The notes beneath the pieces are model-generated. The model saw nothing but the letters and a program-made list of their open reading frames with translations, did no database searches and had not been told where the DNA came from. A stretch of 64,000 nt of DNA from Candidatus Latescibacterota bacterium (GTDB lineage: Bacteria; Latescibacterota; UBA2968; UBA8231). Position 1 is the stretch's first letter. The number at the start of each line of letters is the position of its first letter. The stretch lies in assembly GCA_965242865.1 (NCBI GenBank), contig CBDETK010000013.1:2912001-2976000 (forward strand). The letters are read 5' to 3'. The position numbers and the translations under genes were made by a program. Below are positions 2,435 through 58,640 of this stretch, in pieces.

Positions 2435-3535
2435 CTATCGTTCCCGCTTTCTATAGAGCTCTTCCATGGCGTCTTGCAACAAGCGGTTGAAGTTGATTCG
2501 GCGATTGTAGCACCGGCGATAGGCATCCACTCGGCTCAACGTCTCTTGGTAATAGCTCGGCACCGCGTACAGCCGCACGATTTCAGTGGCCATCTCTTCT
2601 GTGTTGCCGACTAGCCGTATGGAGCGCATCCGGTCGAATTCGGCTAGTTCCCGGATGCCAATCGAATCGAAGGATACTACCGGCTTGCCGCAATGGATTG
2701 CTTCCAAGGCAAAAATGCCAAACGCTTCCACGTCGGCTGTCGAGACGACGCAAAGACACGCCGCGAACTGTTTTCTCACCTCGGCGTCAGACAGGGATGT
2801 TCGGTTGAAGTGAATTGGCCGTCCAGCCCGTTCATTAGCTTGTACGAGTTCCCTAGTGTATGCGGGATACAGTGAGTCGTCCAGGCCTCCAGAGACGCGG
2901 ACCCCGATGCCATAGCCGTGCAAGCGGCGGGCTAACTGTATAACCGCGTCGAGGTTTTTGCGCGGTGCTATTCTCGTCGGGCAAAAGGCGAAGGGACGCG
3001 CTGTGGCTCCAGCCGCCGACTTCCATATTCCATGGCGGATTTCGTCGTCGGCCTTGGTGGGCAGGTTGTAGCGCACCCAGATCGAATCCAATCCAAAGTG
3101 GCGTCGCAAGAATTGCTGGAAAAACCGGGCAAAGACCACGACGCCTAGTAGGTTGACCTCGTGTAGTAGGCGCAGGCAGCGGGCCTTTGTTTCCGATGGT
3201 AGTTCCACGACCGTCTCGAATGGAACCAGCACCGTATCGGCGGCTACCTGTTCCTTGGCGACCAGTTGCAACGCGGCGAACCCACAGGCAAATACGATGT
3301 CGGCGGCTTGGAGGTCTCGACGTAGCTCTACCGGCAGTTCGCATTCTTGTGGACTGAATCGGTAGTCGAGCTTGCCGCGAATCAGGTCCGCATTGGTTAT
3401 ACAGCGCACCGCTTGGTGCCGCTTTCGCACATAGTCGTCTATCGACCGAATGACTTTCTCCGCACCCCCTTCCAGTTCGTACAGATAGGGGGCGATCAGT
3501 ACCGCTTTGTCTTTATCGGGTGCGATCGATTCCAT
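2435..3535 (-). CDS. Glycosyltransferase, GT4 (GT-B) family
   Basis: GGAEKV near the N-terminus, RIAPRKN, and the GT4 signature EAFGIFALEAIHCGKPVV. Confidence 0.88.
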   Translation of the reverse strand: MESIAPDKDKAVLIAPYLYELEGGAEKVIRSIDDYVRKRHQAVRCITNADLIRGKLDYRFSPQECELPVELRRDLQAADIVFACGFAALQLVAKEQVAADTVLVPFETVVELPSETKARCLRLLHEVNLLGVVVFARFFQQFLRRHFGLDSIWVRYNLPTKADDEIRHGIWKSAAGATARPFAFCPTRIAPRKNLDAVIQLARRLHGYGIGVRVSGGLDDSLYPAYTRELVQANERAGRPIHFNRTSLSDAEVRKQFAACLCVVSTADVEAFGIFALEAIHCGKPVVSFDSIGIRELAEFDRMRSIRLVGNTEEMATEIVRLYAVPSYYQETLSRVDAYRRCYNRRINFNRLLQDAMEELYRKRER

Positions 3536-3539
3536 CGGA

Positions 3540-4193
3540 CTAAGGCTCCAAGTTAGAATCGGTTAGTGCGTCCAAATGGGCGCGATAGGCCCAGCCTTTA
3601 AGCACACCGCGCAATCCACCGGCTTCGTCATGTAGTTCGATTTGGCTGACGGCCCCGTTGGGAAAGTCAGCGGCCAACAGGGCTGCCAGATCGGCTTGCG
3701 GGCACAAGTCTTTGATCGTGGTGTTGAATAGCCCGCCGTGGCCGACAATCACGATGTGTTCGCCCCAGCGGTTGGCTACCGCCTGCCGCAGTCCCGCCTG
3801 CATCCGGCCCCACAGCGCGTGGTAATTTTCGCCATTGGGGAAGGCGGCGGCGTGGTCGCCGGCATACCACGCTGCGAAGATGCGGTCGTGGAGCGTCCAA
3901 GCGGCTTGGGTGGGCGGCTCTCGTTCCAAGCGGCCGACATCGACTTCGCGGAAGGCTTCGACGATATGGACCGGGAATTGGTGTGGACCGGCAATGCACA
4001 CGGCGGTTTGCTGCGCCCGCTGCAAGGGCGAGGCATAGACCGCCGCGATGGGGAACGACGCGAGGTACGCGGCCGTGCAGTGCGCCTGTCGCCAGCCTAA
4101 CGGCGTGAGCGGATAGTCCACGATGCGATGGGAAAACTCGCCGGTCTGATTAGCGCGGTTCTCTCCGTGACGCACCAGCCACACCGTGTTCAC
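3540..4193 (-). CDS. Histidine phosphatase (phosphoglycerate mutase-like) family protein
   Basis: LVRHGEN, ASPLQRAQQTA, FPNGE and VGHGG motifs. Confidence 0.9.
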   Translation of the reverse strand: MNTVWLVRHGENRANQTGEFSHRIVDYPLTPLGWRQAHCTAAYLASFPIAAVYASPLQRAQQTAVCIAGPHQFPVHIVEAFREVDVGRLEREPPTQAAWTLHDRIFAAWYAGDHAAAFPNGENYHALWGRMQAGLRQAVANRWGEHIVIVGHGGLFNTTIKDLCPQADLAALLAADFPNGAVSQIELHDEAGGLRGVLKGWAYRAHLDALTDSNLEP

Positions 4194-5254
4194 CGACTCA
4201 GTGCCTTCAAGACGCGCCCGAGCAGCGGCTGCTCCTCGGCGGCCAGCGCGGCGAGCGTCCCGCTAGCCCGCGTGAGAGTGTCGGGCCGCTGATGCGTTTT
4301 CCAACGCAACAGCACTAGACGCAGCCTGCGTACCTTTCGCTCGATTGCACCAAAGCGCATCCCAAGCTGCTCCTCTGGATCGAGATAGCCCTGCGCTTCC
4401 ATGTACTGCAACCGCGCCTGCATACACGTTTTGTGTTCCCATAGGATGCGCCACGAGATGTCGCGGTAGGCGGCCGGATTTTTCAGTTCGCGCTGGAGAA
4501 ACCGATAGATGGCCGTGCCCCAAAAGCCGCCCTCTCGCGGCACGGCTAATAGCCGGTAGCGCTGCGACGTGTCGGACGCAGACAGATAGTCGGTCAACTG
4601 TTCGGCCACCGCACAGGGGTCAAAGGGATATGGCGAGTCGGGCAAATACTTGTAGAGGAACACTCGGGGCCGGTCTTCCATCGCTTGAAGAAACCACGGC
4701 GGCAGCGACCGGCCGGCTTGCAACGCCTGCTGAATGTGGCCTTCGCGGGTGAACGAACTCGCTTGTTCCACCACGTCAAACGGCATGTGAGAGATTGCGT
4801 AGCCGCCCTGTTCGTCGAAGCCGGACAGCACCAACGTGCGCTCCTCGGTGTCATAGCCAGACACGAGTACTTCGTGGATGAAGTGGTGCCGCTGATAGTG
4901 CGGTCGGTTGGGCAGATAGAAGAAGTCGACATCCGTCTGGACGTAGTAGCCCCGGTCAATACACGAGACGATCCACGGGACGAAATCAGCGGTGCCCAGC
5001 CCTAACACTTGGCGGTCGATGGTCTGGACGTCGAGGAAGGGGCAGGTGGAAAAATACACATGGCGCACCTCATGGCGCGTGCTAAAGGGTTGGGTGTAGA
5101 ACTTCAATTCTTCGCCGGGGAAATTGAACAGTTGAATGTGAGTGCTGTATAGCCACGGCAGGTAGGCATCGGCTTGGGCGAGGATGGACAGCGGATACGT
5201 ATTGAACAAATAGGAACAGATTGGCGGCGAGTGCTGTGGTAGGGTGCGTTGCAT
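4190..5254 (-). CDS. BtrH-like (papain/NlpC-fold) protein, putative ACP-dependent acyltransferase
   Basis: GYYVQTDVDFFYLP...Y..HHFIHEVLVSGYD matches the BtrH_N pattern (D.yyLp...H..H..l.GYD); lies directly downstream of the ACP gene. Confidence 0.6.
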   Translation of the reverse strand: MQRTLPQHSPPICSYLFNTYPLSILAQADAYLPWLYSTHIQLFNFPGEELKFYTQPFSTRHEVRHVYFSTCPFLDVQTIDRQVLGLGTADFVPWIVSCIDRGYYVQTDVDFFYLPNRPHYQRHHFIHEVLVSGYDTEERTLVLSGFDEQGGYAISHMPFDVVEQASSFTREGHIQQALQAGRSLPPWFLQAMEDRPRVFLYKYLPDSPYPFDPCAVAEQLTDYLSASDTSQRYRLLAVPREGGFWGTAIYRFLQRELKNPAAYRDISWRILWEHKTCMQARLQYMEAQGYLDPEEQLGMRFGAIERKVRRLRLVLLRWKTHQRPDTLTRASGTLAALAAEEQPLLGRVLKALSR

Positions 5255-5262
5255 GATGGAAC

Positions 5263-5520
5263 TTACACCCTCTGCTTGCCGACGACGTATTCAGCCAGCG
5301 TCTCTACCGAATCAAACAATTCGGCGGTCAGTTCGTCGTCTTCGACCGTGATGCCAAATGCCTCCTCTATGACGGAGACGATCTCTAAAGTGGCCATTGA
5401 ATCGAGGTCCATGCCTCCACCGAACAGCGTCTCGTCGTCGGGAATTTCCGCTGGATCCACGTCCAATCCAAGCGCGGCGACGATCAGGCACTTGATCTGC
5501 GCTTTCAGGCACCCGGACAC
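5263..5520 (-). CDS. Acyl carrier protein
   Basis: 85 aa, acidic; LFGGGMDLDSM phosphopantetheine serine motif and IEEAFGI; GAGGAG 8 nt upstream of GTG. Confidence 0.92.
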   Translation of the reverse strand: MSGCLKAQIKCLIVAALGLDVDPAEIPDDETLFGGGMDLDSMATLEIVSVIEEAFGITVEDDELTAELFDSVETLAEYVVGKQRV

Positions 5521-7397
5521 GATGCGGGCTCCTCGGCAAAGTGGTTGACCACCGTATCCACCATCCGCTGCTGGCCTTTCTCCGACAGAATCGACACTGC
5601 TGGTAGGCCAAAGCGATCTTCGAGCCGACCCAAGGTACGTTTGATGTGCTCCGCAGTCATCGGACGTGGCTTGATGAATGTGCGCCCGTAAGCGGCGCGG
5701 ATGTGCTTTTCTTGGTCGCTCATGGCCAATAGCAGCGTCGGTGCTTTGGCGAGGGCGCGCAGAGCGTCAATGGTATCTTGGATATACTCGTCGGCGTCAA
5801 CGCTGTTGACCACGAGGATACACGCATCCGGCTTCGTGCCTAGCAGAAAGGCTGTCGAAGTCAGCGAATGGGTGCGGTGTTCATGCACATCGTAGGGAAT
5901 GGTGCCCGACTGCGAGCCGACCAAGATGAGATCGGGTTTCTGCTGCTGGCTAAGCTGCCGCAGTTTGTAATCCAGATAGGGCACGTAGTATTGCAAGGGC
6001 ATTTCCACATTGGAGGCATAGCCCATAGGAAAAGCGAGGTCCATGCCAAACAGCACCGCATGGTGCTCGGTGCCGATTTGACCGACTCGATAGCCGAGGC
6101 GCAAAAGGCGGCGACGCAGGATCAGTTGCAGGGTGAATTTGCCCTGTTGGGAACTAGTGCCAAACACGCCGAGCACCGGCACATCAACCGGACTGTAAGC
6201 CGGCTCAGTTTGGAGGGCTTGCCGTACGTCATCGGACGAGACCGAGGGATACGTCAAGTGCAGTCCCTTCTTGTCGGCGAGTTCGTACAAATCGCCATAC
6301 TTGTCTTGGGGCACGGCGAGGAAACTGAAAACGTGGCAGTCGCGCTTTAGTGCGGTCTCAATGGCCGTGCGTAGCATGTCTTTCTTGTCAATCCGCCCTA
6401 ACTGATCGACATAGCCGAGGATGAGCGTATCCGCCTTCTTGAGGGCCGCAGCAAGCCGGGGCCGGATGCGTACCCCGATGGAAGGTAAGCCAAGCACCTT
6501 GCCCGCGTCCTTGGCCACGAGCCCCTTGCCCACCGGATCGGCGATACCCGCGATCTCGAAAGCGAGTAAATCCCGCGCTCGGACCAAGGAGTGCATCTCT
6601 TTGTTGAACGGGTAGAGTGCCGCCTTCTGAATCCAGGAAAAACTTGAAGGGTTAGCAGGAGACTCCGGCGTGACCGCTGGGCGCGTACTTTGGAGCAGTT
6701 CCGGCGTCCCTTTCAACGCATTGGTCTGCAGTACCTCGCGCACCTGTTCCAATGATGCCCCCGGATGCGCTTGGCGAATCAAGGCAACCATGCCGGTGAC
6801 GTGCGGCGCGGCAAAGCTGGTGCCCGACACCATCAGATACGACGGATCGGTCCAGCAGACCCGCTGCATATCACCCCGGGCGACGCATTCAATCGCGTGG
6901 CCCGGACGATAGTAATACCCATAGCGTCCGCGGACCTTGCCTCCTGCAACGCCGATAACGTCGGACAAGACCGCAGGATAGCTTTCTCGCCCGTCGTTGT
7001 GCTCGGCAGCGACGAGAATAACCCCGGCTCCACGAGCTCGGCAACAGACCTCGGCGAGCCGGTCGCGGAAGGCAACGTCCGTCGTGCCTAAGCTGAGATT
7101 GACCACATCCATCCGCTGCTCAATCGCCCAGCGGATCGCCGCTAGCAGAGCCGAACCATCGGCGGTCAGGGATTCGTCGAAAATGCGGACATCGTACAGA
7201 GTCGCGGTCGGCGCGATTTGGCGGATGATGCCCGCGCAAGCCGTGCCGTGCCCCGCACCAATAGCTGCAGGCGGAGACTCCGAGTCCAAGAGGACCTCGT
7301 GAACTGCGCCGATCTTTTCGTGCGTCGGGTCAACACCCGAGTCAATAACGGCGACACGGACGGGATGAACTGCTTTGGCTAGGTTCGTCAGGAGCAT
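5505..7397 (-). CDS. Subtilisin-like S8 peptidase fused to a DUF1611/TIGR04066-like P-loop domain
   Basis: Catalytic triad motifs VAVIDSG, GHGTACAG, SGTSFAAPHV; no signal peptide. C-terminal VPVLGVFGTSSQQGKF...GYRVGQIGTE...PDLILVGSQSG. Confidence 0.85.
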   Translation of the reverse strand: MLLTNLAKAVHPVRVAVIDSGVDPTHEKIGAVHEVLLDSESPPAAIGAGHGTACAGIIRQIAPTATLYDVRIFDESLTADGSALLAAIRWAIEQRMDVVNLSLGTTDVAFRDRLAEVCCRARGAGVILVAAEHNDGRESYPAVLSDVIGVAGGKVRGRYGYYYRPGHAIECVARGDMQRVCWTDPSYLMVSGTSFAAPHVTGMVALIRQAHPGASLEQVREVLQTNALKGTPELLQSTRPAVTPESPANPSSFSWIQKAALYPFNKEMHSLVRARDLLAFEIAGIADPVGKGLVAKDAGKVLGLPSIGVRIRPRLAAALKKADTLILGYVDQLGRIDKKDMLRTAIETALKRDCHVFSFLAVPQDKYGDLYELADKKGLHLTYPSVSSDDVRQALQTEPAYSPVDVPVLGVFGTSSQQGKFTLQLILRRRLLRLGYRVGQIGTEHHAVLFGMDLAFPMGYASNVEMPLQYYVPYLDYKLRQLSQQQKPDLILVGSQSGTIPYDVHEHRTHSLTSTAFLLGTKPDACILVVNSVDADEYIQDTIDALRALAKAPTLLLAMSDQEKHIRAAYGRTFIKPRPMTAEHIKRTLGRLEDRFGLPAVSILSEKGQQRMVDTVVNHFAEEPASCPGA

Positions 7398-7678
7398 CGT
7401 CTGATTAAGCTTAGGACCGCCGAATCTTCATCTAGTGCGATGTCCAAGGCTTCCGGTCCGAGCAAAAATGTCGAATCGATAAACCATTCAACCGGCTGAC
7501 CATACAGAGCGGCCAACCGGAGCAACTCCAGCGTCGAGACGGCTCGCTCACCCGATTCAATGCGGCTGATCGCCGATTGGTCGCGGCCAATTTCCGCACT
7601 GGCGGTCGCTTGGCTGATATGCTGACTTCTACGGGCCAAACGCAAGCGGCGGGCGAGCTCTTCAGGGGTTATGGGCAT
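7388..7678 (-). CDS. XRE-family helix-turn-helix regulator
   Basis: RLRLARR..ISQ...A.EIG.DQSAISRIESGER; stop overlaps the S8 gene start. Confidence 0.88.
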   Translation of the reverse strand: MPITPEELARRLRLARRSQHISQATASAEIGRDQSAISRIESGERAVSTLELLRLAALYGQPVEWFIDSTFLLGPEALDIALDEDSAVLSLIRRCS

Positions 7679-7744: not shown

Positions 7745-8611
7745 TTACTCTCGATTAAAGTAGAAGGCGAGTTCCGGCTGTTGGCGGGCAGATATGGCAA
7801 TCGTTGAATCCATGCGGATCGCCGTCGCTAAATCCTCGCTGGCCAACGTCATCTCGCCCTGCCGGGCGCGGATGAGTGCTCTGTAATACCACGCAACGCC
7901 GGTTTCGTTGTCGATCGATATAGCTCGATTGAGCGCGGCCAGCCCTTCTTCTAGGCGACCTGTACTTCTAAAGAGAATGCTTCGCTTGATCCACGACGCG
8001 AGGTGCTCAGGATCGTGCTGCAAGGCGATCTCAAGTGCTGCTTCAGCAGCCGCATAGTCTCTTTCTTGGAGATGAAGCGAACCAATAAGTCCCCAGAAAT
8101 ACGTGAAATGCGCGTCGGTAGAGTCGGCGACTAAGCAGGCTTTGTAAACATGTACTGCTTCTTCTACTTGTCGTAAATCGCGCAGAAGATCGCCCGTTCT
8201 CTGGCATAATCCCACGTTTTTGGGATCTAAGCGGAACGCAGCCGAGTAAAACTCAAGGGCTTGTATTGAATCCTCCATGGCTAGACAGGCATCGCCCTTG
8301 CTCTTCCACAGCCAAGGATCGTCGTGGTCGTACTGTATAGCAGTATTTAGGGCATCGAGCGCACGATCATATTCACCCAGCATTATATAACACTTTGCAA
8401 GCACATTCCAAGCGCGGGGCGAATCACCCTCTAAGGCAAGGAATTGTTCATAAGCGCGAAAGGCCATTCGGTGTTCATTGATCGCCATAAGTCGATCGCC
8501 ATGCCGCAAGTAGGTAGCCCCATCCGATAGATCATACCTCACCATTAGATATAACAGTGAAAGGATGGTTATGGAATTGATCAAAACGGCCGAGAGGACC
8601 CATTTTTTCAT
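7745..8611 (-). CDS. Membrane-anchored TPR protein
   Basis: One N-terminal hydrophobic helix, then TPR units (AWNVLA, LWKSKG, AWYYRA); ATGA overlap with the upstream CPBP gene. Confidence 0.85.
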   Translation of the reverse strand: MKKWVLSAVLINSITILSLLYLMVRYDLSDGATYLRHGDRLMAINEHRMAFRAYEQFLALEGDSPRAWNVLAKCYIMLGEYDRALDALNTAIQYDHDDPWLWKSKGDACLAMEDSIQALEFYSAAFRLDPKNVGLCQRTGDLLRDLRQVEEAVHVYKACLVADSTDAHFTYFWGLIGSLHLQERDYAAAEAALEIALQHDPEHLASWIKRSILFRSTGRLEEGLAALNRAISIDNETGVAWYYRALIRARQGEMTLASEDLATAIRMDSTIAISARQQPELAFYFNRE

Positions 8612-9351
8612 AGCATAGACTCCAACATATAAACCCTATATAAGAAGACGAAGGCTGGGACCATATTGGCAACGCCGTGTATCACAATACAGGCTCCAAT
8701 AGAACGCGATCGTTCATAGTAGAGAACAAGCACGAGACCTAATCCCAAATGGGGGAGGAGGTCCAAAAATTTCTCGTCCATATTGTAGTGGCATAATGCA
8801 AACAGTATGACATTTGCCACAACAGCCCACATAAAAGGTAAATGCTTTCTGAGATAGGGATACAGAATACCTCTAAATAGCCACTCCTCCACTAAGGGAA
8901 TGACAACTACACCTTGTAATATCCTTATAACCGATAAATCGGGTAGGTACATTACCGGCGGAATATAAGCAACCGATTTTGATAGATTCGCTAGGACCAT
9001 AATTGACACGACTAAGGAGGCTGCTAGCCAGATCTCCTTCCCGAAACCAACCAAAGATAGCCTTAGCCGATTAGGCACGGTTCCTACAATGAGACGAAAA
9101 CAGACAAGCATTAAAATCATCGCGACCGCATGGGAACCAAAAAAGCGAAGAAGGACGATTTTCATATCCCGAAACAGCAACGACTCTTCGGCCCAGTCGG
9201 CCCAGTTATCGACATAAGCGTTCCTGAGCGCAATAAAAAAGAATAAGATGGCGAACTGTAGGGTGACCAAGATGAAGTTCCATGGACACTCCCATTCTTG
9301 TCTTCGCATGGTGTCCCAAGTATTGAGCACAGTGCTATAGACCGATTTCAT
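8608..9351 (-). CDS. CPBP/Abi (type II CAAX) intramembrane protease
   Basis: PLVEEWLFRG, LFALCH and IVIHGVAN motifs; multi-pass membrane protein. Confidence 0.9.
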   Translation of the reverse strand: MKSVYSTVLNTWDTMRRQEWECPWNFILVTLQFAILFFFIALRNAYVDNWADWAEESLLFRDMKIVLLRFFGSHAVAMILMLVCFRLIVGTVPNRLRLSLVGFGKEIWLAASLVVSIMVLANLSKSVAYIPPVMYLPDLSVIRILQGVVVIPLVEEWLFRGILYPYLRKHLPFMWAVVANVILFALCHYNMDEKFLDLLPHLGLGLVLVLYYERSRSIGACIVIHGVANMVPAFVFLYRVYMLESML

Positions 9352-9548
9352 ATCCGCGTACCAAGCGTAGGCGATACCAAATCCAAGGACATGCTGTGAA
9401 GTAGCCCACTTTTTCGTACATCAGATCAATAGCGGAGTCAACAATGGTAATGTTGACTAGATGTCCAGAAGCATCAAACGGTTCTGATTGGTTGATTCGA
9501 CCTATGGGTTCCCTAGGGATATAAGCATCTATGGATGTACAGCGGTGC

Positions 9549-9605
9549 TACGTGTGATCCGTAAAACTTGTCACTTTATCAAGCGAACTATTCACGGATC
9601 ACGTA
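9549..9605 (-). terminator. Stem-loop just 3' of the precursor-like gene
   Basis: GTGATCCGT (9554-9562) pairs perfectly with ACGGATCAC (9594-9602), extended by tacg/cgta; no clear U-tract. Confidence 0.5.
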
Positions 9606-9606
9606 C

Positions 9607-9987
9607 TTACCTGGGCCTAGTATTGTCTTGCCTCGCCTCTTGCGTTCCAGAACCTTGAGACGCCAGAGAATCCAGTACTGCCTTAGAGCTTGAAACAGAC
9701 AGGTGAGGTCCAAGATTTGGATCATGAGTCACGCTTAGATTGAAACCTCCTCCGAAGCCAGCCGATATGCTACCAGTTGCGGAGCTATCGGAACCTACGG
9801 TTAATTGAGCACCTGCCCCAGGAGTACTCAAACCAACGCCACCAGAGGACGACCAGTGTTGGTGAGTTCTGGAAGGATCATGGCAACTAAGGCAAGCATT
9901 GGAAGGATCGACCTGAAACGTTTCGTCATGGTAGGCTTGAATAGCCTTGCGATCCATCGTCGAGTACGGTTTGATGAGTTTTCTCAT
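9607..9987 (-). CDS. Putative bacteriocin/RiPP precursor peptide
   Basis: AAGGAGG 5 nt before ATG 9987. Leader MRKLIKPYSTMDRKAIQAY, then CLSCH and a Gly/Ser-rich body; flanked by two CPBP genes. Confidence 0.65.
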   Translation of the reverse strand: MRKLIKPYSTMDRKAIQAYHDETFQVDPSNACLSCHDPSRTHQHWSSSGGVGLSTPGAGAQLTVGSDSSATGSISAGFGGGFNLSVTHDPNLGPHLSVSSSKAVLDSLASQGSGTQEARQDNTRPR

Positions 9988-10042
9988 CATTTCCTCCTTG
10001 TGTTGATGAGTTAATTGTGGCAGCGATTCTTATATCCCTAGT

Positions 10043-10810
10043 TCACCCATAGGTCATAGGTCGAAGGATATTTGTCAAAAATCCTATAACGAAGTTACCT
10101 ACTGCATGAATAATTACTAACGGAATTATAGATCGTAATCTTTCTAAAAGGAAACACTGAATGACACCAAACGGGAAAATGGCAATAGCCACTATGTAAT
10201 TATCGTAGTATAACTGTGGATGCCAAATAGTAAATAAAAGAGAAGATACAGTCATACTTGGTATAATTCCGAAGTATCTTCTAAAGATATTGTAGCAAAT
10301 TCCTCTGAAAAACAACTCTTCTGGAATAGGCGGAAGCACCGTAAAAAGAAATATAAATATTAATATCATCTGAAAATGGGGAGACTTCCCTCCTGAAAAA
10401 GTAAGAGCCCCATAAGGTTTTCCTGTTAGTGTAAACATTCCGAAGTAGTAAGCACATCCTAAAGCGCATCCAATAACGATGGCTCCACCGTACCAGTATT
10501 TGGAAAAATTGAAATGCCAAATATAGTTGTAAGTCGGCAATCTATCTGTACGTACAAAGTACAGTAATATCGAGAGAAATAGAATATAGCTTATAATAAA
10601 CTGAGTAAATAGACCAGCAAACAAAGCCCATTCTATACTCCATGAATTGCCGAAATTCGATAGACGGATATTGGTAAAATATTTAGCCTCTATCCATATT
10701 TTAAAGCAATAACTTGCCAAGTGGGGAACTACCATTACCAGAAGAATTCCCCAGCTTATTTTTCCGACAGAAGATATAGTGTGATCTTTAGGTTTATTGA
10801 GTTGATACAT
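10043..10810 (-). CDS. CPBP/Abi (type II CAAX) intramembrane protease
   Basis: PIPEELFFRG, LLFTIWH and IIHAVGN motifs; strongly AT-rich. Confidence 0.9.
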   Translation of the reverse strand: MYQLNKPKDHTISSVGKISWGILLVMVVPHLASYCFKIWIEAKYFTNIRLSNFGNSWSIEWALFAGLFTQFIISYILFLSILLYFVRTDRLPTYNYIWHFNFSKYWYGGAIVIGCALGCAYYFGMFTLTGKPYGALTFSGGKSPHFQMILIFIFLFTVLPPIPEELFFRGICYNIFRRYFGIIPSMTVSSLLFTIWHPQLYYDNYIVAIAIFPFGVIQCFLLERLRSIIPLVIIHAVGNFVIGFLTNILRPMTYG

Positions 10811-10826
10811 TGACTTAAATCCTTTG

Positions 10827-10892
10827 TTAGATACTTGCCATTCTATCGTAGAGTTGAACGTATATACCTCCTCGTATCAATAGTTCCTCATG
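10827..10892 (-). pseudogene. C-terminal remnant of an ABC exporter ATP-binding protein
   Basis: Hand translation HEELLIRGGIYVQLYDRMASI* matches the typical ABC-exporter tail G(T/S)HEELL.. GG.Y..LY. Confidence 0.7.
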
Positions 10893-11844
10893 TACATACA
10901 GCTACATACAGCCGCGCTAGCTGCCCAATCTCGATCTTGGGCAGGTCGGTTTCCTTAACCATAATTCGTGCTTGCCAGCCATCGGTCTGAGCCACTTCGA
11001 GCACCGTTTCCCCCGCTTGGAGACGATCTCCCACCCGTTGCTCTAGTTGCCCGGTCAGCACCGTGCCCGCGGCCGGTGGCCAGAGCGTGTTCTTGGCCAG
11101 CCGGTTTTCTAACCGCTGGTACTCCTGCTCGATCTTCTCGCGCTGTTTCTCCAAGGTGTGGAGTTCGGCGGCTCGTCCTTGTACGGCCTGAAGCCGCTGC
11201 TGGCTCTGCTCCAACTCGGCTTCGGCATCTCTCAGCCAAGCGTTGCCCAGCCGTACCGGCAGAAGCTGCTCCAACGGTTGACGGACAAAGCTGGTCGGCA
11301 ACAAGGCGGCTGTTGAGTAGATGGTTTGTTCGGCCACGACCTGCTCCAATTGGATGCGCCTGCGCTCTACTTCCCGCTGGGCGTGGACGACCTCGGCTTG
11401 GCGAATGTTGCGCTCCTGCGCCATCTGCTGCTGAATGGCTCGCTGCTGGCTCCGGTTGACTCCGAGATCCTTTTCGGCCTGCCGGAGTTGGATGCGCCAG
11501 TCGGTATCGTCGAGTGTAACCAGCGGTTGCCCCTTTTCTACCTGTTGCCCCTGTCGGACGTGCATCTGCTGGATAATCCCCGCAATCTCGGCCTTGACCC
11601 GACGCCGATGGCGCGGCTCAACGACGCCCGTGCCCTCTACAGTCATATCCATGCTGAAATACCAACTCAGGACGCCAGCGAGTGCCAGCAAGCACCCCAC
11701 CAACCCCAGAATCACCAAGAGAAACGAGCGCACGAACCGAAAGCCCGGCCCGTGAAATTCTTCCCCTATACTCAGGGCATTACTACGGCTATCGTGCCGT
11801 TCGTTTTGCCCCAGTACTTGAGATTGAGCGGTTAGAGCCGGCAT
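10888..11844 (-). pseudogene. HlyD-family membrane fusion protein, 3'-truncated
   Basis: TM helix, VEGTGVVEP, lipoyl-like halves (VRQGQQVEKGQPL, VGDRLQAGETV) and coiled coil. Ends abruptly at IGQLARLYVAVCT*, inside the beta-barrel domain. Confidence 0.8.
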
Positions 11845-13519: not shown

Positions 13520-15712
13520 ATGCTGAAACTGCTCTCGACCTTTGCCGTCCTCTCGCTGGCGGCACCGCATCACCCCGGGGCACAGGGCCCTTCGACTATC
13601 CGCCAACAGCGGCTCGAACTGGACCGCACGGTCTGGTCGGATGAGCGTCTCGCCCAGCAGCACGAGGCCGTGTTTGTCGCCTTGTGGGATCGCCTGCGCG
13701 CGGCCGAGCAGGCCCGGCCGGTGCTGGCCGCTTTTCCCTTTGCTCAACTGCGGATCGGCACCCTACAGGACAGCGTCGAGCACGACTGGGGTATCACCGA
13801 AACGCACTACGGCGGCCCGCCGCGGACGCTCGACCCCGGGCAGTGGGCGGCCCTGCTCGAGCAATGGGAAGCAGAGGGCTTTGTTCTCGAACAATCCGAA
13901 TGGCACCACAAGCGGTTCACCCCGGCCGAGGTCGGGCCGGGCCGATCGTTAATAGAACTGAAACTACACGTCAAAAACCGGGCTAGGCGTCTAATCGTCA
14001 GCGGCGACCTGTCCGTCACTTACAACGAGCAGCAAGACGAGGCCGGGCACTATATACCCGCCACCATCGAGGCTGCGAATCTGACCCTGACCGACCGGCG
14101 CGCCGCCCCCGCTTTTGTCGCCTCGGCTGTCTTGGCGGACGACACCGCGCTCTCGCCCCTCATCGCCGCCGACCTCGACCGCGACAGTCTCGACGACTTG
14201 CTCGCGCTGGGCGCCAACCTGCTCTACCGCAACCAAGGTGGACGCTTTGCGCCCGAGCCGCTGTTGGCGCATCCGCCCCGGGGCGGCCGCATTGAAGTGG
14301 CGCTCTTGGCCGATTTTACCGGCGATGACGCTCCCGACCTAGTCGTCGGCGGTCCCGGGCAGCTCTTGGGCCTCTACGAGGGCGGCGAGGGCTTTGACCA
14401 ACCCGGCTTGGCCATTGCGACCCGGCCCCTGCAATACCCCGAAGCCATGAGCGCGGGCGACATCGACTCCGATGGCGACCTCGACCTGTGGGTCGGCCAG
14501 TACCGGCCGCCCTACCGCGAGGGCCAGATGCCTACGCCCTACTACGACGCCAACGACGGCTATCCCGCATACTTGCTGCGCAACGACGGGCGCGGCCGCT
14601 TTACCGACATCACGATCCGGGCGGGCCTCCAAGTCAAGCGCAAGCGGCGCACCTACAGCGGGTCCTTGGCCGACCTCGACGGCGACGGCGACCTCGACCT
14701 GCTCGTCGTCAGCGACTTCGCCGGCATTGACCTGTACCACAACGACGGCACCGGCACCTTTGCCGACATCACCGCTCAGGCCGTCAGCGAGGCATCGACC
14801 TTTGGCATGTCCCACGTCTTTGGCGACTACAACGCCGACGGCCGCCTCGACATGTACGTGGTGGGCATGAGTTCCACCACGGCGCGCCGCCTCGACTACC
14901 TCGGCCTCGGGCGGGAGGAGTACCCCGAGCACCAGCAGCAGCGCCGGGCTATGGGCTTTGGCAACCGGCTTTACCTCGGGCGCGAGGACGCCCGGTTCAG
15001 CATGGCCCCAAGCACGGAGCAAGTGGCGCGCACCGGGTGGTCTTGGGGCGTGGCCTCCGCGGACTTCGACAACGATGGCGACGACGAAATCTACGTGGCC
15101 AACGGCCACCTCAGCGGCGAGACCGCCCAAGACTACTGCACCACTTTCTGGACGCACGACATCTACACCGGCGGCTCGGAACCCAACCCGCAAATAGCCG
15201 AATTTTTCGACGAGACGATTGCGGACTGGAACAGCGCGGGCATCTCGTGGAACGGCTTTGAACACAACAAGCTCTACCTAAGCGGAGGAGGGCACTCCTT
15301 TGTCGAGGTCGGCTATCTGATGGGCGTGGCCTTTGAATTTGATGCGCGCACCGTGCTCGACATGGACGTAGATGGCGACGGGCGCGTGGACCTATTGGTC
15401 AGCGAGTGGGCCGGCACCCCGCGCCGCGAGCGGGTTCACGTCTTGCGCAATGTTTGGCCCGGCGCCAACAACTGGCTCGGCGTGCGCCTGCGAGGGGCCA
15501 TCGGCGCACGCATCACTCTGCACACGCCTCGCGGCAACCAGACCGAGTGGGTGTACACCGGGGAGTCCTTTGACGCGCAACGACCGCCGGTCCGCCATTT
15601 TGGCCTCGGCGGCAACGAGCAGGTTGACGCAATTGAAGTGCGGTGGGCCGACGGGCACGTGACGACCCTCGCCCAGCCGGCAATCAACCGCTATCACGAA
15701 CTGGAACCCTAG
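13520..15712 (+). CDS. CRTAC1-family protein (FG-GAP/VCBS repeats plus ASPIC/UnbV domain)
   Basis: Signal peptide; repeated D.D.DG.LDL motifs; GWSWG; C-terminal HFGLG...IEVRW. Confidence 0.88.
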   Translation: MLKLLSTFAVLSLAAPHHPGAQGPSTIRQQRLELDRTVWSDERLAQQHEAVFVALWDRLRAAEQARPVLAAFPFAQLRIGTLQDSVEHDWGITETHYGGPPRTLDPGQWAALLEQWEAEGFVLEQSEWHHKRFTPAEVGPGRSLIELKLHVKNRARRLIVSGDLSVTYNEQQDEAGHYIPATIEAANLTLTDRRAAPAFVASAVLADDTALSPLIAADLDRDSLDDLLALGANLLYRNQGGRFAPEPLLAHPPRGGRIEVALLADFTGDDAPDLVVGGPGQLLGLYEGGEGFDQPGLAIATRPLQYPEAMSAGDIDSDGDLDLWVGQYRPPYREGQMPTPYYDANDGYPAYLLRNDGRGRFTDITIRAGLQVKRKRRTYSGSLADLDGDGDLDLLVVSDFAGIDLYHNDGTGTFADITAQAVSEASTFGMSHVFGDYNADGRLDMYVVGMSSTTARRLDYLGLGREEYPEHQQQRRAMGFGNRLYLGREDARFSMAPSTEQVARTGWSWGVASADFDNDGDDEIYVANGHLSGETAQDYCTTFWTHDIYTGGSEPNPQIAEFFDETIADWNSAGISWNGFEHNKLYLSGGGHSFVEVGYLMGVAFEFDARTVLDMDVDGDGRVDLLVSEWAGTPRRERVHVLRNVWPGANNWLGVRLRGAIGARITLHTPRGNQTEWVYTGESFDAQRPPVRHFGLGGNEQVDAIEVRWADGHVTTLAQPAINRYHELEP

Positions 15713-15720
15713 TCCGTCCA

Positions 15721-17691
15721 ATGCGCCCATCCATTGGGCAAAACGCCCGCCCTTTCCTCGTTGCTAGCCGCTCCCCGCTACTCACCCTCTTTCTATTCTT
15801 CTTTTGCGCGGCCATGGCCGATGCACAACGAGCACCGTCCATCGTCGGCGTCCCCCCAGAGGTTTTGGACCCGCCTTGGCTGCAAAGCCGTCGCCAGAGC
15901 CAGCTCGCCGCGGCAAAGGGCTACGCGGTTTTTTGCGATTTCAGCTTCACTGACCGCCAGCCCACGAGCGGCATTGCCTTCCGCCACCGCATCGTCGATG
16001 ACTCGGGGCGGCACTACCGGCCCAATCACTACGACCACGGCAATGGGATTGCCTTGGCGGATGTCGATGGCGATGGGCGCACAGACCTCTACTTTGTCAA
16101 CCAAGCGGGCGGCAATGGGCTGTGGCGCAACGCGGGCCGCGGCCAATTCGCCGACATCACTGAGCGGGGCGGTGTGGCCCTCGCCGACCGCGTGGGCGTG
16201 ACCGCTTCCTTCGCCGATCTAGACAACGACGGAGCACCGGACCTGTACGTCACCAACGTGCGCGTGGGCAATGTTCTCTTTCGCAATCGAGGCGACGGGT
16301 GCTTTGCGAACATTTCCCCAGGGTCTGGCCTCGGGCACAAAGGACATTCTTCGGCCGCCCTCTTCTTCGACTACGACCGCGACGGGCAGCTCGACCTCTT
16401 TTTGACCAATGTTGGGCAGTACACCGAGCGCGGCGACCCGGTCGCGGTGATGGGCTTTGCGCCCGAGGAGCAACGGGATCAGTACCGCTATTACGTGGGC
16501 TTTAAGGACGCCTTTGCCGGGCACCTCAAGCCCGAGCGCACCGAGCCGAGCCTGCTCTTCCGCAATGCGGGCGCAAACCGCTTTGTCGATGTGACCGCAG
16601 CAGTGGGCATCAGCGCACGCGGTTGGTCCGGCGACGCAGTGCCGCTCGACGCCAACGAAGACGGCTGGCCAGACCTGTACGTGCTGAACATGCAGGGGCA
16701 CGACCAATACTACGAAAACGACCACGGCCAGCGCTTTATCGACAAGAGCCTAGCCGTCTTTCCGCACACGCCGTGGGGGGCCATGTCGGCCCAAATCCTC
16801 GACTTTGACAACGACGGCCACCAAGACCTCTACATCACCGACATGCACTCGGACATGAGCGAGGACATTGGGCCGGAGCGCGAAAAGAGCAAATCGCGCA
16901 TGCAGTGGAGCGAGAGTTTTCTCCGCTCGGGCGGGCGCAGCATCTACGGCAACGCCTTTTACCGCCGCCAAGCCGACGGCACTTACGCCGAGATCTCCGA
17001 CTCCATCGGCGCGGAAACCTACTGGCCTTGGGGGTTGAGCGCGGGCGACCTCAACGCCGATGGATACGAAGATGTCTTCATCACCGCCAGCATGAATTAC
17101 GCCTTCCGCTACGCCGTCAACGCCCTGTTGCTCAACGACCGCGGCCGGGGCTTTCTCCACGCCGAATTTGCCCTTGGCGCGGAGCCGCGCCGCGAAGGCC
17201 GCACGGCCATGCCTTGGTTTGCCTTAGATTGCGCTGGGGAATATGCCGCCCATCCCGACTGCGAGGGGCGCAGCGGCCCCCATGTCTTCTGGGGGGCGCT
17301 GGGATCGCGCGCAGCGGCCCTCGCGGACTTGGATGACGATGGCGACTTAGACATTGTCACCAATGAATTCAATGCGCCGCCGCTGCTGCTGCTGAGCGAT
17401 CTGAGCGACCAAAAAGCGGACCTCAACTTTCTCAAGGTCCGCCTCATCGGCACCCGCTCCAACCGCCATGGCCTCGGCGCGCTGGTCGAGGTTCACACCC
17501 GCACTCAAACGTACACCCGCCTGCACGACGGCAAGTCCGGCTATCTCTCCCAGAGCCTCTTGCCGCTCTATTTCGGACTTGGGCCGGCCCGCACCGTCGA
17601 GCGCGTCCAAGTGCAATGGCCTTCTGGCGTCGCGCAGATCGTCGCTGGCCCCATAGAGAGCAACCAGCTCCTCGAAATTAGGGAGCCGTAA
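15721..17691 (+). CDS. CRTAC1-family protein (FG-GAP repeats plus ASPIC/UnbV domain)
   Basis: D.DGDG..DLY repeats; GARV-like GALVEV, SGYLSQS..LYFGLG, QWPSG. Start uncertain (15643, 15721 or later). Confidence 0.88.
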   Translation: MRPSIGQNARPFLVASRSPLLTLFLFFFCAAMADAQRAPSIVGVPPEVLDPPWLQSRRQSQLAAAKGYAVFCDFSFTDRQPTSGIAFRHRIVDDSGRHYRPNHYDHGNGIALADVDGDGRTDLYFVNQAGGNGLWRNAGRGQFADITERGGVALADRVGVTASFADLDNDGAPDLYVTNVRVGNVLFRNRGDGCFANISPGSGLGHKGHSSAALFFDYDRDGQLDLFLTNVGQYTERGDPVAVMGFAPEEQRDQYRYYVGFKDAFAGHLKPERTEPSLLFRNAGANRFVDVTAAVGISARGWSGDAVPLDANEDGWPDLYVLNMQGHDQYYENDHGQRFIDKSLAVFPHTPWGAMSAQILDFDNDGHQDLYITDMHSDMSEDIGPEREKSKSRMQWSESFLRSGGRSIYGNAFYRRQADGTYAEISDSIGAETYWPWGLSAGDLNADGYEDVFITASMNYAFRYAVNALLLNDRGRGFLHAEFALGAEPRREGRTAMPWFALDCAGEYAAHPDCEGRSGPHVFWGALGSRAAALADLDDDGDLDIVTNEFNAPPLLLLSDLSDQKADLNFLKVRLIGTRSNRHGLGALVEVHTRTQTYTRLHDGKSGYLSQSLLPLYFGLGPARTVERVQVQWPSGVAQIVAGPIESNQLLEIREP

Positions 17692-48200: not shown

Positions 48201-48636
48201 GGGCCCGACCACGACCATTGAGCGCGTGATCTCTTTCTCGGAGAGCCGAGATTTTGACGAACCCACGGCCGAGGGCGACGGCACCCAATCCCTGCGCGGC
48301 ACCCGCGACCGGGTGCGCACGACCACCACGTTCAAGATCACGCACACCCTCAAGCCGCGGCGGCTGCCCTTGATCGGCCGGCTCAAAAGCGATGTCACGC
48401 TCACCTTGGAACAAAAATTTGAAAACGAGGTGCGCTCCATTGCCACGGGGGCCGAAGACCGCATTCCCAACGCCAAAAAGAACACTTGGCGCACGCAGTT
48501 GACCACGACCTATAACTTCAGCTCAAACTTCCGCGGCGAGGGGCGAATTCGCATTGAGAACGACAAAGACCACATCCGAGACAAGACGCGGAAGATCCGC
48601 GAGGTGCGGCTTTCGGGCACGTTCTTCCTCCGCTGA
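42268..48636 (+). CDS. sprA: SprA-family giant outer-membrane protein (T9SS translocon homolog)
   Basis: 2122 aa; KLDYDGEEDSIFQEVQAGN, GLFGI, SRPN....GYIDDFE, PDTEDLNDNG.LD, DELRL; beta-strand-rich C-terminus. Start uncertain. Confidence 0.82.
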   Translation: MGTRQTIDVDRYALEVFLRFPVQAFSSWLCVFSLAAMAHAEPGLHFEPLSGPLSQRIAGPRQEAAFRAGQPLLPAPSRAPISYRAAVDSAGIAHYGRRVSGFPEGPTVAVALTDYLHMEYQAKHRQLWHQQIRRDFRTTASEQRRRRGSRFEWTVPFSTPKPLRRFIGDQGPSLALNGSRTIIISGKSEWTDGEVQTSFGRSSRFPSLGIEQESDFTVEGKVGELINIRIDQDTQNLGSALGSNLGDQLSNQIKLDYDGEEDSIFQEVQAGNTTLELPNTRFVGFRQKNKGLFGIRAKGHIGPLAFTTVASHEKSKSNRQTFKGGAAIDTLQLKDYQYIRNTYFFLHEFYRAHLLDFRRLLDGAQFGAENFVDISRLEVYINDFNTKNDAELFAKPGTAWVDPSDSLSTIECFDAAGQRLRNSGCFEEGTWHRLDPDDDYAVVAEAGYIILNRPVLNSYAMAVYFKTRAPDFDGALQHETTRLKTSAEADSLHLKLIKARNARPGFPTWNLEWKNVYRIASGFSTGRRFDPKTLQVDIAKEVPGQEDQLSQKGRSYLQVLGLDERGKDPGSAPDRVIDADYIGLDDLRGHLIFPDQRPFDPRSDRYRGQLAEPGPAIYDEQQQRAQIEASRYKILVRAASSEQRIRLGGLFGSVRSETVEVQLNGRPLTRDADYRVDMMGSVTFVGSIAQEVADPGADLEISFESADLFNIGSQQKTLLGLRTEYEFWGGDGRVGSTMIYNNERSSDRRVRVGNEPKRTVIWNFDLRARREVPALTRAVDMLPLIKTAVPSEVTLDAEVAQSRPNLNTKGRGYIDDFEDSERPISLFLNRMRWAPASTPVGGRLGAENRASFLWYNPYDGALRTDIWPNQEEQIDAQNRRTDILSLALTPRLEAPESWGGITLAFSAVNDFSESKFLEVWVRGREGILHVNLGDQINEDYIANGRLDTEDEPFPGQAAGDGLVEREEDVGIDGRDDEAELNFYLRLQDATFDTTRSLAERKQAFAALYPDADPLRPNRSPDDPEGDNWQYDAQRDKHDYSRINGTENNKKDPESGDRPDTEDLNDNGVLDRRNSYYHYELDLSASHYEVAGTENKGWRQLRVPLFGPQVERVGSPDSTRIEYARLMLSSAPQPEADQPVRADIALVEIVGNKWQEDELVRLDARFPVGERETLDVTVIGTDKSQSYRPPPGVKIRRNVQSRTREREQSLVLAYENLEPGHQMSATRILTRPANYTNYERLRMYVYGDSSGTVEYARGDSSDLVLFVRFGVDSTNYYETISPIFPGWEGGRKGWKGNQVDVDLPVISQLKALLQSGQADTTTGEFYYTYRVLDPHEAPLDGKTLIAQRELEALRAAGYDPHVERFSLDQVFARSGRRSGEEAIYRVRGNPSMQSIKQLSIGLRNRAANRAYSGRVLLDELRLDEARNDPGLAAYTHLNAKLADFATVGGNVLWRQENFRSFSGQGGNSTDREAALAVSTNAQKLLPSSWGFLIPLKVNLSRTTSLPRFGPGSDVELTPEEKLEQQAVRSKELYDVSISRRPGKNVLLRWTLDQMNLRLSHSREHSSDPVRPINEREAQTMSFNYSMPLPKPGLRIMGWLPTFMPKSWTRLEFRPLPTSLTYSFNGRRNISRLLRRGDDDPTEQEDFTLVETYASKLNPLSGLSANYNLKIDRDLRKKFALAQRSFGREVGRRQTADLGLSLRLISWLDQNYTFKANYEEQNDPAQRRGVAPIDSISGRPFKTLEIRNQNDLSVRLNLKIPTLLKNLGKAKRRDDRDRERKRDAGESSAKGDPAEQQKSQVPQGPNMFRRLAGWTGRLVEPVNASWRRNINSRHFNLLHRPSLAYQLGLADTLRVRQVTQGLTHQDNWSHTASFEAGSGMRLPFGISVKVNSKDQTTKRSGASQQRRRLRNERTYPRINLSWGRADRIPLIKRVINSAQVNASFETVEASEGEGRLAPGHLLSEETKTEFRASWNGRWRWGPTTTIERVISFSESRDFDEPTAEGDGTQSLRGTRDRVRTTTTFKITHTLKPRRLPLIGRLKSDVTLTLEQKFENEVRSIATGAEDRIPNAKKNTWRTQLTTTYNFSSNFRGEGRIRIENDKDHIRDKTRKIREVRLSGTFFLR

Positions 48637-58576: not shown

Positions 58577-58640
58577 ATACGTTTGGCTTGGATGCTACGG
58601 ACTTTTTTTACCCTTGCTAATTCGGGCGAGGAGACCGGCT

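Follow-up and report, generated by a model that had tools for sequence, protein, structure and literature searches.

The gene that concerns us lies on the minus strand of a 64,000-nt stretch of the genome of a Candidatus Latescibacterota bacterium (contig CBDETK010000013.1, positions 2,912,001 to 2,976,000; hereafter, the window). It encodes a 630-residue protein in which a serine protease of the S8 family is joined to a DUF1611-like domain, and the gene of a predicted acyl-carrier protein (ACP) overlaps its 3' end. This raises the question of whether the two halves of the fusion act in succession on one substrate and, if so, what that substrate might be. The best explanation overall, which we put forward tentatively, is that the fusion protein is the signature bifunctional enzyme of a module that matures and exports peptides of the RiPP type (made by the ribosome and modified after translation). 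What is new here, as far as the comparisons below can be taken, is a family of candidate precursors with a defined leader motif.

A cytoplasmic protease and its candidate precursors

The N-terminal half of the fusion protein matches Peptidase_S8 (PF00082) with 101.6 bits, against a gathering score of 21.8. Its catalytic triad (D19/H50/S194) is invariant in 45 of 45 aligned homologs, and the oxyanion residue N100 is kept in at least 90% of them. Since the catalytic aspartate already stands at residue 19, the sequence leaves no space for a signal peptide or a prodomain. The closest curated family is QhpE (NF049966), which aligns with residues 14-229 at 146.5 bits; this is short of the family's cut-off of 165, and the domain is therefore QhpE-like and no QhpE equivalog. 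In a model of the full-length protein (predicted local distance difference test [pLDDT] 89.7, predicted template modeling score [pTM] 0.68), two well-folded halves of undefined relative orientation are separated by the sole internal stretch with pLDDT < 50, residues 238-250, which lie in a disordered Pro/Ser-rich linker. The gene is intact, and every conserved residue is kept. The original prediction, made without database searches, had described an intact Asp/His/Ser subtilase without signal peptide or prodomain, a Pro/Ser linker, and a region of ~370 residues with the motifs GTSSQQGKF (residues 413-421) and VGSQSG (residues 493-498), and our profile searches, alignment, and model bear out each of these elements.

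The fusion is widespread. An exhaustive search over cluster representatives returned 684 relatives at E <= 1e-30, and most of the best 150 aligned from end to end. A word-indexed search, in which 8000 candidates were scored, yielded 995 relatives; the top 120 all carry both PF00082 and PF07755, are mostly 600-720 aa long and, where they are named, are labeled 'S8 family serine peptidase'. We located the fusion at genome loci (referred to below by L numbers) in Latescibacterota, with up to 85% identity, and in Gemmatimonadota, Planctomycetota, Melioribacteraceae, and Lachnospiraceae. The window's own genome holds two more paralogs, with 61% and 38% identity. Another 630-aa open reading frame (ORF) of the window, at 58326-60218, was considered as a paralog and ruled out, as it encodes an AAA_22 protein.

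The motif AIQAY, after which the original prediction had placed the cut, lies outside the fusion gene, in a separate small ORF with a strong AAGGAGG ribosome-binding site and a Gly/Ser-rich core of 107 aa. Judged by eye, small ORFs beside the fusion gene at six other genome loci have similar N-termini. We built a leader hidden Markov model (HMM) from these seven loci, the window's ORF included, and applied it to an independent set of 80 metagenome loci comprising 14,251 six-frame ORFs. Eleven ORFs scored E < 0.1 (2.3e-13, 1.6e-5, 1.2e-4, 2e-4, 3.9e-4, 0.008, 0.009, 0.014, 0.036, 0.075, and 0.082), all of them on the strand of the fusion gene and 10 of them plausible as precursors. Two iterations over a pooled set of 32,061 ORFs gave 30 leader ORFs in 30 of 121 loci, and 30 of 30 were on the fusion's strand. 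The leader consensus reads M-K-K-x-L-K-K-P, then 6-12 residues, then (V/I/L)-x-(A/L/V)-Y-x-x-E, and leaders counted up to the Tyr are 15-25 residues long. The cores that follow (11-116 residues) are without conservation between loci: those of gut loci are short and have many Cys residues, and those of Latescibacterota are long and rich in Gly, Ser, and Ala. Read from these ORFs, a conserved leader with a hypervariable core is the RiPP pattern.

Tests confined to the seeds were less telling. In a leave-one-out analysis, the window's ORF was recovered with E 1.6e-6, the sole significant seed among the seven; the other seeds gave E-values of 0.54, 3.8, and 12, and > 200 for L003, L004, and L023. 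An HMM built from Latescibacterota only ranked Firmicute peptides 2nd and 4th of 3352 ORFs (E 0.24 and 1.1), and the converse HMM ranked the window's ORF 2nd of 9055 (E 1.8), values that are insignificant alone. Since the seed-only tests are mostly insignificant, it is the independent metagenome set that carries the argument for a conserved leader. In L017, L075, and L080, a homolog of the window's precursor ORF immediately precedes the fusion gene. Compared with NCBIfam, ten candidate precursors matched no meaningful family: none of the ten matched the CLI_3235 bacteriocin family TIGR04065 at E <= 10, and weak cytochrome-type matches merely reflect the presence of CxxCH. This motif, which is the attachment site of heme c, is retained in the long cores of the window (ACLSCHD), L017 (ACAGCHN; ORF 9537-9932), and L075 (ACGGCHS; ORF 6777-7208), and its occurrence in a cytoplasmically processed peptide is without explanation. 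The window's ORF and that of L017 also have a C-terminal ...QDNTR... in common, the C-terminus of L075 being outside this comparison.

The end of the leader suggests where the cut would fall. Position P4 is V, I, or L in 29 of 29 distinct leaders, and P1 is Y (25) or C (4), a regularity that stems in part from the search pattern itself. Classical subtilisins prefer an aliphatic P4 and an aromatic P1. Since the leader end, (V/I)-x-(A/L)-Y, suits this preference, a cut after AIQAY is the likeliest, and we consider it somewhat probable that the protease cuts directly after the conserved Tyr. The predicted removal of a leader is thus supported by a precursor family with this leader end and by the likeness to QhpE, and the exact site is the part of that prediction that stands less firmly. 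The S8 domain resembles QhpE and has no secretion signals, the leader is conserved, and an exporter lies alongside; on these grounds, it is very likely that the domain is a cytoplasmic leader peptidase.

The exporter emerged from a neighborhood survey in which 28 loci were annotated with Pfam. The recurrent core consists of an ATP-binding cassette (ABC) exporter, the fusion gene, and the ACP gene, with HlyD adaptors in Gram-negative lineages. The exporter combines ABC_membrane and ABC_tran, its annotation lists no C39 peptidase domain, and it lies beside the fusion in most of the annotated loci (not in L011, L021, L033, or L069). Radical S-adenosylmethionine (SAM) enzymes are added in Lachnospiraceae, other gut loci, and Melioribacteraceae, and CPBP/Rce1-like membrane proteases adjoin the precursor in Latescibacterota. 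Further lineage-specific additions are BtrH_N/DUF4872, transglutaminase core, redoxin, MauE, and Yip1 proteins.

The condition of the window's own cluster could suggest that the fusion belongs to no peptide-maturation system at all and that its small ORF, CPBP, and ACP neighbors are coincidental or the product of decay. There, HlyD is truncated and an ABC exporter is missing, and the precursor and a CPBP gene sit in a low-GC cassette that is arranged unlike the locus of the close relative L002; the cross-phylum leader HMMs, insignificant alone (E 0.24 and 1.8), point the same way. We regard this explanation as extremely improbable, since the same gene set recurs across phyla in the annotated loci, the leader ORFs share the fusion's strand without exception, matches in the independent metagenome set were significant, and the fusion gene is intact with its conserved residues all kept. 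Moreover, published Firmicute clusters pair unfused versions of these genes with a bacteriocin precursor.

The DUF1611-like domain and its acyl-carrier partner

If the S8 domain removes a leader, what does the other half of the protein do? The C-terminal region of ~370 aa consists of two subdomains, a Rossmann-like N part and a P-loop C part. PF07755, the DUF1611 P-loop domain, matches residues 404-610 with 45.9 bits (gathering cut-off 25), and PF17396, the DUF1611 N domain, matches residues 295-381 with 18.9 bits, which is below its cut-off of 22.6, although it passes in the relatives from L005, L007, and L048. Residues 258-621 also align with model positions 2-360/361 of TIGR04066, an NCBIfam 'peptide maturation system protein', at 121.7-124 bits. 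This score falls below the curated cut-off of 200, and on these profiles the domain is a sister group of TIGR04066 and no equivalog of it.

An AlphaFold2 model of residues 256-630, made from 45 sequences, has a mean pLDDT of 93.5 and a pTM of 0.90. The best seven Foldseek rows for this model are chains of three entries: 2g0t (E 9e-15), 2obn, and 7xrj (E 7e-13). The first two are structural-genomics DUF1611 proteins, while the title of 7xrj reads 'N-acetyltransferase DgcN'. The original prediction had made its reading of this domain depend on superposition with DUF1611/DgcN, and the domain does superpose, with VIA-align Z scores of 29.8 for 2g0t (root-mean-square deviation [rmsd] 2.8 over 309 residues), 28.7 for 2obn, and 24.9 for 7xrj (rmsd 3.9 over 305/331 residues, 21% identity). 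A second tier of folds follows at about Z 14.8 and consists of generic SIMIBI P-loop proteins, namely MinD, Soj, dethiobiotin synthetase, and cobyrinic acid diamide synthase. In the model, then, the C-terminal half is a complete DUF1611 fold. Its GTSSQQGK aligns with GTDCVVGK of 2g0t and GTDCSVGK of DgcN. Across the 45 homologs, G413 of this P-loop is invariant, and T414, Q418, G419, and K420 are each at least 90% conserved. Outside the P-loop, the DUF1611-specific residues YP(F/Y)NKEM, D323/T324, E444, and Q496 are nearly invariant across phyla. Longer fusions of the domain were sought among 6567 proteins of 1104-3150 aa and none was found, which is weak evidence against a larger fusion.

As the original prediction had noted, the ACP gene and the fusion gene overlap. 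They share 16 nt at the 3' end of the fusion gene, and the ACP gene's product matches PP-binding (PF00550) with 38.8 bits against a cut-off of 20.8. The predicted phosphopantetheine-attachment residue, S41, is invariant in 28 of 28 aligned ACPs. With an ACP HMM, 78 of the 121 loci have such an ORF on the same strand as the fusion if E < 1e-5 is required, and 88 of them if E < 0.01 is allowed, whereas 0 of 121 have one solely on the opposite strand; many of the loci where no ACP was detected are short contigs. The ACP is thus a conserved partner of the fusion. TIGR04069 is absent from the 14 NCBIfam families that the window's ACP matched at E <= 0.01. Complex predictions of the C-terminal domain with the ACP scored 0.00 in both runs, made without controls, and are evidence neither way.

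One homolog, from the Planctomycetota locus L021 (7155-9056), has lost the P-loop Lys (GAQGGF in place of QQGKF), and no ACP lies in the 2.6 kb downstream, a single case of the two being lost together. L021 alone is clearly without both, and 18 loci with an intact Lys have no detected ACP. The search pattern overlooked several P-loops, and we do not use this link as evidence.

We propose the following mechanism for a conserved set of precursor, fusion protein, ACP, and ABC exporter, joined in some loci by HlyD and CPBP immunity-like genes. The cytoplasmic S8 domain would cut a leader of ~20 residues off precursors such as the window's ORF. The DUF1611-fold domain would then move the acyl group that the ACP bears on its phosphopantetheine arm (at Ser41) onto the freed N-terminal amine, the fusion passing the protease product straight to the acyltransferase domain. 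The product would leave through the cluster's ABC/HlyD system; since that of the window is defective, export there would rely on either of the genome's two paralogous loci. Cutting followed by N-acylation of the new N-terminus from the ACP is the best single reading by analogy, because the sole characterized relative acylates an alpha-amine, cleavage frees an alpha-amine, and the ACP Ser is invariant. In addition, subtilase and TIGR04066 are separate genes of the same cluster in Firmicutes (PMC10731318 and PMC4573289), which argues that the fusion joins two steps of a pathway. Nevertheless, we hold this reading to be possible but somewhat doubtful, and we keep our confidence low because the loading of the ACP is unexplained and papain-fold proteins lie beside the ACP or are fused to it.

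These and several other observations weigh against the proposal. The residue three positions past the Tyr is acidic (E in 20 of 29 leaders and D in 4 of 29), which the search pattern did not impose. The conserved block therefore runs beyond the proposed cut, and it is possible that the Glu is a recognition element of the product or, alternatively, that the cut falls after it. As to the C-terminal domain, its motifs are unlike those of canonical DUF1611 proteins (GTSSQQGK versus GTDCxVGK, GTEHH versus TGQTG), and it has no match at E <= 10 to the DgcN model NF041892, whose cut-off is 480 bits and which the L048 paralog matches with 36.7 bits; by these comparisons it is no DgcN ortholog. As to the ACP, L048 and L054 keep the P-loop, yet 7 kb or more of sequence on each side of the fusion contains no ACP gene. 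Papain-fold BtrH_N/DUF4872 proteins lie beside the ACP in the window, L004, L007, and L068, and in L014 (8264-9616) the ACP is fused to Transglut_core; such proteins could be enzymes that unload the ACP. Since AMP-binding, ketosynthase, GNAT, condensation, and phosphopantetheinyl transferase genes were found in 0 of the 28 annotated loci, and thus no acyl-activating gene, the origin of the acyl donor is unexplained. Finally, the window's cluster is without an ABC exporter and its HlyD is truncated, and acyl transfer has been demonstrated for no member of the fusion family.

The lack of any other loading enzyme in the annotated loci raises the alternative that the DUF1611-like domain itself loads the ACP, either as an acyl-CoA:ACP transacylase or as an ATP-dependent ligase of the SIMIBI type. 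The S8 domain would still be the leader peptidase, and BtrH-like or transglutaminase-like proteins, where present, would transfer the acyl group. The tier of folds below DUF1611 suits such a role, as it contains ATP-dependent SIMIBI enzymes (dethiobiotin synthetase, Z 14.8; cobyrinic acid a,c-diamide synthase, Z 14.6; CTP synthetase, Z 13.8), and Foldseek also lists Mur ligases and succinyl-CoA synthetase alpha. A BtrH-like gene directly follows the ACP gene in the window, L001, L002, and L006 and lies within the locus in L003, L004, L005, L007, and L068; with the transglutaminase core fused to the ACP of L014, this recalls butirosin synthesis, in which BtrH takes the acyl group from the ACP BtrI. 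However, BtrH-like and transglutaminase-like genes are missing from many loci where fusion and ACP are kept, among them L009, L011, L017, L023, and L075, and the candidate Cys of the window's BtrH-like protein is replaced in its closest relatives (by Arg in L001, Lys in L003, and Ile in L005). Judging by the 7xrj title, the sole characterized enzyme of the DUF1611 fold is an N-acyltransferase, and there is no obvious logic in fusing a loader to a leader protease. We consider this alternative unlikely.

It is also conceivable that the domain performs no acyl chemistry and serves as a nucleotide- or CoA-binding module for leader recognition, control of the protease, or hand-over to the exporter, with the ACP-like protein as a structural or adaptor partner. 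The second-tier folds are mostly nucleotide switches and partner-binding ATPases or GTPases (MinD, Soj/ParA, MeaB, and HypB), the minimal clusters contain no recognizable RiPP recognition element or other leader binder, and an acyl source was seen in 0 of the 28 annotated loci. In PMC7876137, QhpE is reported to be a single-turnover, suicidal protease, a precedent for unusual control. We nonetheless find this quite unlikely, given that the invariant ACP Ser (28/28) argues for a real carrier function, that residues outside the P-loop are as nearly invariant as in a catalytic site, and that the closest characterized structure is an enzyme.

A further thought, highly improbable in our view, is that the ACP carries the peptide itself: once the S8 domain has freed the N-terminus, the P-loop domain, with ATP, would activate a carboxylate of the core and place it as a thioester on the phosphopantetheine of the ACP, and an amine would resolve it, giving head-to-tail cyclization or ligation. 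If true, a ribosomal peptide pathway would here include a thiotemplated step, and the fold responsible is one to which no such chemistry has been assigned.

Returning to the favored reading, cutting followed by acylation, its consequences would be considerable. If the DUF1611-like domain does place an acyl group on the new N-terminus, ribosomal peptide biosynthesis would have its first N-acyltransferase outside the GNAT superfamily, and one protein would both cut and cap. Fusion and ACP together mark a very large, uncharacterized peptide-maturation family that ranges over Latescibacterota, Gemmatimonadota, Planctomycetota, Ignavibacteriota-type bacteria, and gut Lachnospiraceae, and the motif MKKxLKKP...(V/I)-x-(A/L)-Y-x-x-E offers a direct means of finding its precursors. 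The gut clusters with short cores (11-32 residues) and the cultured Rosettibacter primus (L024, with a long core) could be tested at the bench.

Organization and state of the window's cluster

Read along the minus strand, the order of the cluster is HlyD, CPBP, precursor, CPBP, TPR, helix-turn-helix (HTH), fusion, ACP, BtrH-like, histidine phosphatase, and GT4 (Table 1). The last six of these genes, from HTH to GT4, overlap or are separated by gaps of at most 8 nt; the HTH gene, which is no ACP, overlaps the 5' end of the fusion gene by 10 nt.

Table 1. Features of the fusion gene and its cluster in the window (positions on the forward strand)
Feature	Position	Strand	Basis
S8 protease-DUF1611 fusion gene, 630 aa	5505..7397	minus	single ORF; PF00082 + PF07755; full-length homologs
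QhpE-like S8 protease domain, residues 13-228	6714..7361	minus	Pfam E 6e-29; QhpE 146.5 bits; invariant triad
Pro/Ser-rich flexible linker, residues ~236-252	6642..6692	minus	low pLDDT in full-length model
DUF1611-fold, TIGR04066-like region, residues 256-621	5535..6632	minus	TIGR04066 profile; AlphaFold2 model; structural superposition
P-loop GTSSQQGK, residues 413-420	6138..6161	minus	conservation; aligned to DUF1611 structures
Acyl-carrier-type protein, 85 aa, Ser41 in DLDSM (codon 5398-5400)	5263..5520	minus	PP-binding profile; conservation
Candidate precursor, 127 aa; leader residues 1-20 (9931-9990) = MMRKLIKPYSTMDRKAIQAY	9607..9990	minus	ribosome-binding site; leader HMM; family
Truncated HlyD-type adaptor gene, upstream end of cluster	10888..11844	minus	tblastn with L003 HlyD
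CPBP (Rce1-like) intramembrane protease, GC ~0.37	10043..10810	minus	Pfam Rce1-like E 6e-18; GC profile
Second CPBP (Rce1-like) protein	8608..9351	minus	Pfam E 9e-20; 72% identical copies in L002, L006
TPR protein with N-terminal hydrophobic segment	7745..8611	minus	Pfam TPR; directly upstream of fusion in L002, L006, L010
XRE-type HTH regulator	7388..7678	minus	HTH_3 E 7e-11; 76% identical adjacent copy in L001
Divergent BtrH_N/DUF4872-like protein, 354 aa	4190..5254	minus	BtrH_N 25.9 bits, below cut-off 29.7
Histidine-phosphatase-superfamily protein, 4-nt overlap with neighbor	3540..4193	minus	His_Phos_1 E 7e-42; in L001, fragments in L002, L006
GT4 glycosyltransferase, last gene of tight operon	2435..3535	minus	Glycos_transf_1 E 2e-12; in L001, fragments in L002, L003

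By tblastn, the window retains residues 1-316 of ~423 of HlyD, with 83% identity to the HlyD of L003. The close relative L002 has the order HlyD, ABC, precursor, CPBP, CPBP, TPR, fusion, ACP, BtrH-like, and in the window a low-GC segment (0.37-0.48) with a different CPBP gene and precursor type replaces L002's HlyD 3' end, ABC gene, and precursor. It seems as though one precursor/immunity cassette had been exchanged for another, with loss of the exporter. The CPBP gene upstream of the precursor is likely an immunity-type gene; CPBP genes also stand beside precursors in L003, L004, L054, L067, L068, and L075. Since the window's exporter set is defective, export would need another transporter.

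The two paralogous loci of the same genome differ in content. L048 (G000:C13:3584000-3603900) has an ABC exporter adjoining the fusion paralog and no ACP within ~8 kb. L049 (G000:C13:3218500-3238400) has a protein-kinase-like gene, an ABC exporter, and an ACP 5 kb downstream, as well as two identical 58-aa ORFs (3673-3852 and 546-725) that begin MKKLTKRNR...GYHVE and have a leader-like look, with an E-value of only 0.29.

In L004 and L007, proteins related to the window's BtrH-like protein score above the cut-offs of both BtrH_N and DUF4872. The putative papain-type Cys of the window's protein is not conserved even in L001, which is 87% identical, while H127 and GYD are invariant in a six-sequence alignment that is gappy at the N-terminus; this subfamily may be non-catalytic or use another nucleophile. 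L132 has a separate Transglut_core gene (4662-5483) in its cluster, and L014 and L132 give hints of a Cys-protease-fold enzyme acting on an ACP-bound group in some lineages. The histidine-phosphatase and GT4 genes are translationally coupled to the ACP and BtrH-like genes in the window and L001 and persist as fragments only in L002, L003, and L006. With a Ser/Thr/Gly-rich core, they present the possibility of glycosylation in the window's sub-lineage. Elsewhere, the window encodes a 2122-aa SprA_N (type IX secretion) protein (42268-48636), two FG-GAP/ASPIC proteins (13520-17691), and an 832-aa MFS-spermidine-synthase-like fusion (18426-20924).

Comparison with known systems

Parts of the proposed pathway have counterparts elsewhere. 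In the butirosin genes, as in the window, the gene of an ACP (BtrI) is followed by one of the BtrH_N/DUF4872 type (BtrH). The window's BtrH-like protein differs from BtrH in scoring below the BtrH_N cut-off and in its unconserved Cys, and its gene is missing from many loci of the family.

Clusters for N-acylated RiPPs own dedicated fatty-acid or polyketide genes. In known N-terminally acylated RiPPs, according to PMC13647313, acylation follows leader removal and is performed by acyltransferases of the GNAT superfamily. The order of events in lipolanthines, goadvionins, lipoavitides, and aphotorhaptins, cutting and then acylating, matches the one proposed for the window. In contrast, the window has no GNAT and no acyl-building gene, and its candidate transferase is a P-loop DUF1611 domain fused to a protease.

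DgcN reportedly uses acetyl-CoA as its acyl donor. In the model, the window's C-terminal domain has the same two-subdomain fold as DgcN over essentially its full length, with the P-loop (G-T-x4-G-K-x-T) at the same place. DgcN is a D-glutamate N-acetyltransferase that acylates an alpha-amino group, going by the title of its PDB entry and the reference as given in PMC12363236. Sequence identity of the domain to DgcN, 2g0t, and 2obn is 15-21%, and family-specific motifs differ. Unlike DgcN, the window's domain shares its polypeptide with a protease and has an ACP as partner, and its gene lies outside any D-amino-acid catabolic operon.

As PMC7876137 describes it, QhpE is a subtilisin-like protease that takes the N-terminal leader off a peptide ahead of export by an ABC transporter. 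Like the window's S8 domain, it is cytoplasmic and without a prodomain. QhpE stands alone, with neither a DUF1611 domain nor an ACP, whereas the window's S8 domain is fused and ACP-paired, and the substrate of QhpE, QhpC, is an enzyme subunit that a radical SAM enzyme cross-links.

A close parallel is found in Firmicute clusters which, according to PMC10731318 and PMC4573289, combine TIGR04066 and the ACP-related TIGR04069 with a TIGR04068 radical SAM enzyme, a subtilase encoded by its own gene, and an ABC transporter; there, the roles of TIGR04066 and TIGR04069 are only guessed. These CcpM-type cassettes are represented by the SacP23 cluster of Paenibacillus polymyxa and a cluster of Roseburia intestinalis. 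They have in common with the window's family an S8 protease, a TIGR04066-type DUF1611 domain, a small ACP-type protein, a neighboring ABC exporter, and a small precursor, and the predicted 19-aa leader of SacP23 compares with leaders of 15-25 residues in the family. The neighborhood of the TIGR04066 type likewise recurs with the fusion, as an ACP in 78-88 of 121 loci, a fused subtilase, and an exporter in most annotated loci, although not in the window.

There are also clear differences. The protease and the TIGR04066-like domain form one polypeptide in the window and are separate genes in the cassette as described. The window's TIGR04066 score is below the cut-off, and its ACP has no TIGR04069 match at E <= 0.01. 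In contrast to the cassette, the window's genome has no radical SAM gene of the TIGR04068 class above the cut-off, its generic matches reaching 86 bits against 500, and matches of this kind also arose in control genomes. In the window the core comprises 107 aa and is rich in Gly and Ser, in the cassette it is a short Cys-rich peptide, and the window has CPBP, TPR, BtrH-like, phosphatase, and GT4 genes in addition.

The original prediction had called the fusion a new RiPP enzyme architecture. With 684 representatives of the fusion, and with unfused TIGR04066/TIGR04069 plus a subtilase already catalogued, this part of it does not hold. The main article texts that we searched yielded no biochemical characterization of the fusion, TIGR04066, or TIGR04069. 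On the evidence of its sequence, the window's protein is a fused, radical-SAM-less variant of a catalogued, biochemically uncharacterized peptide-maturation cassette.

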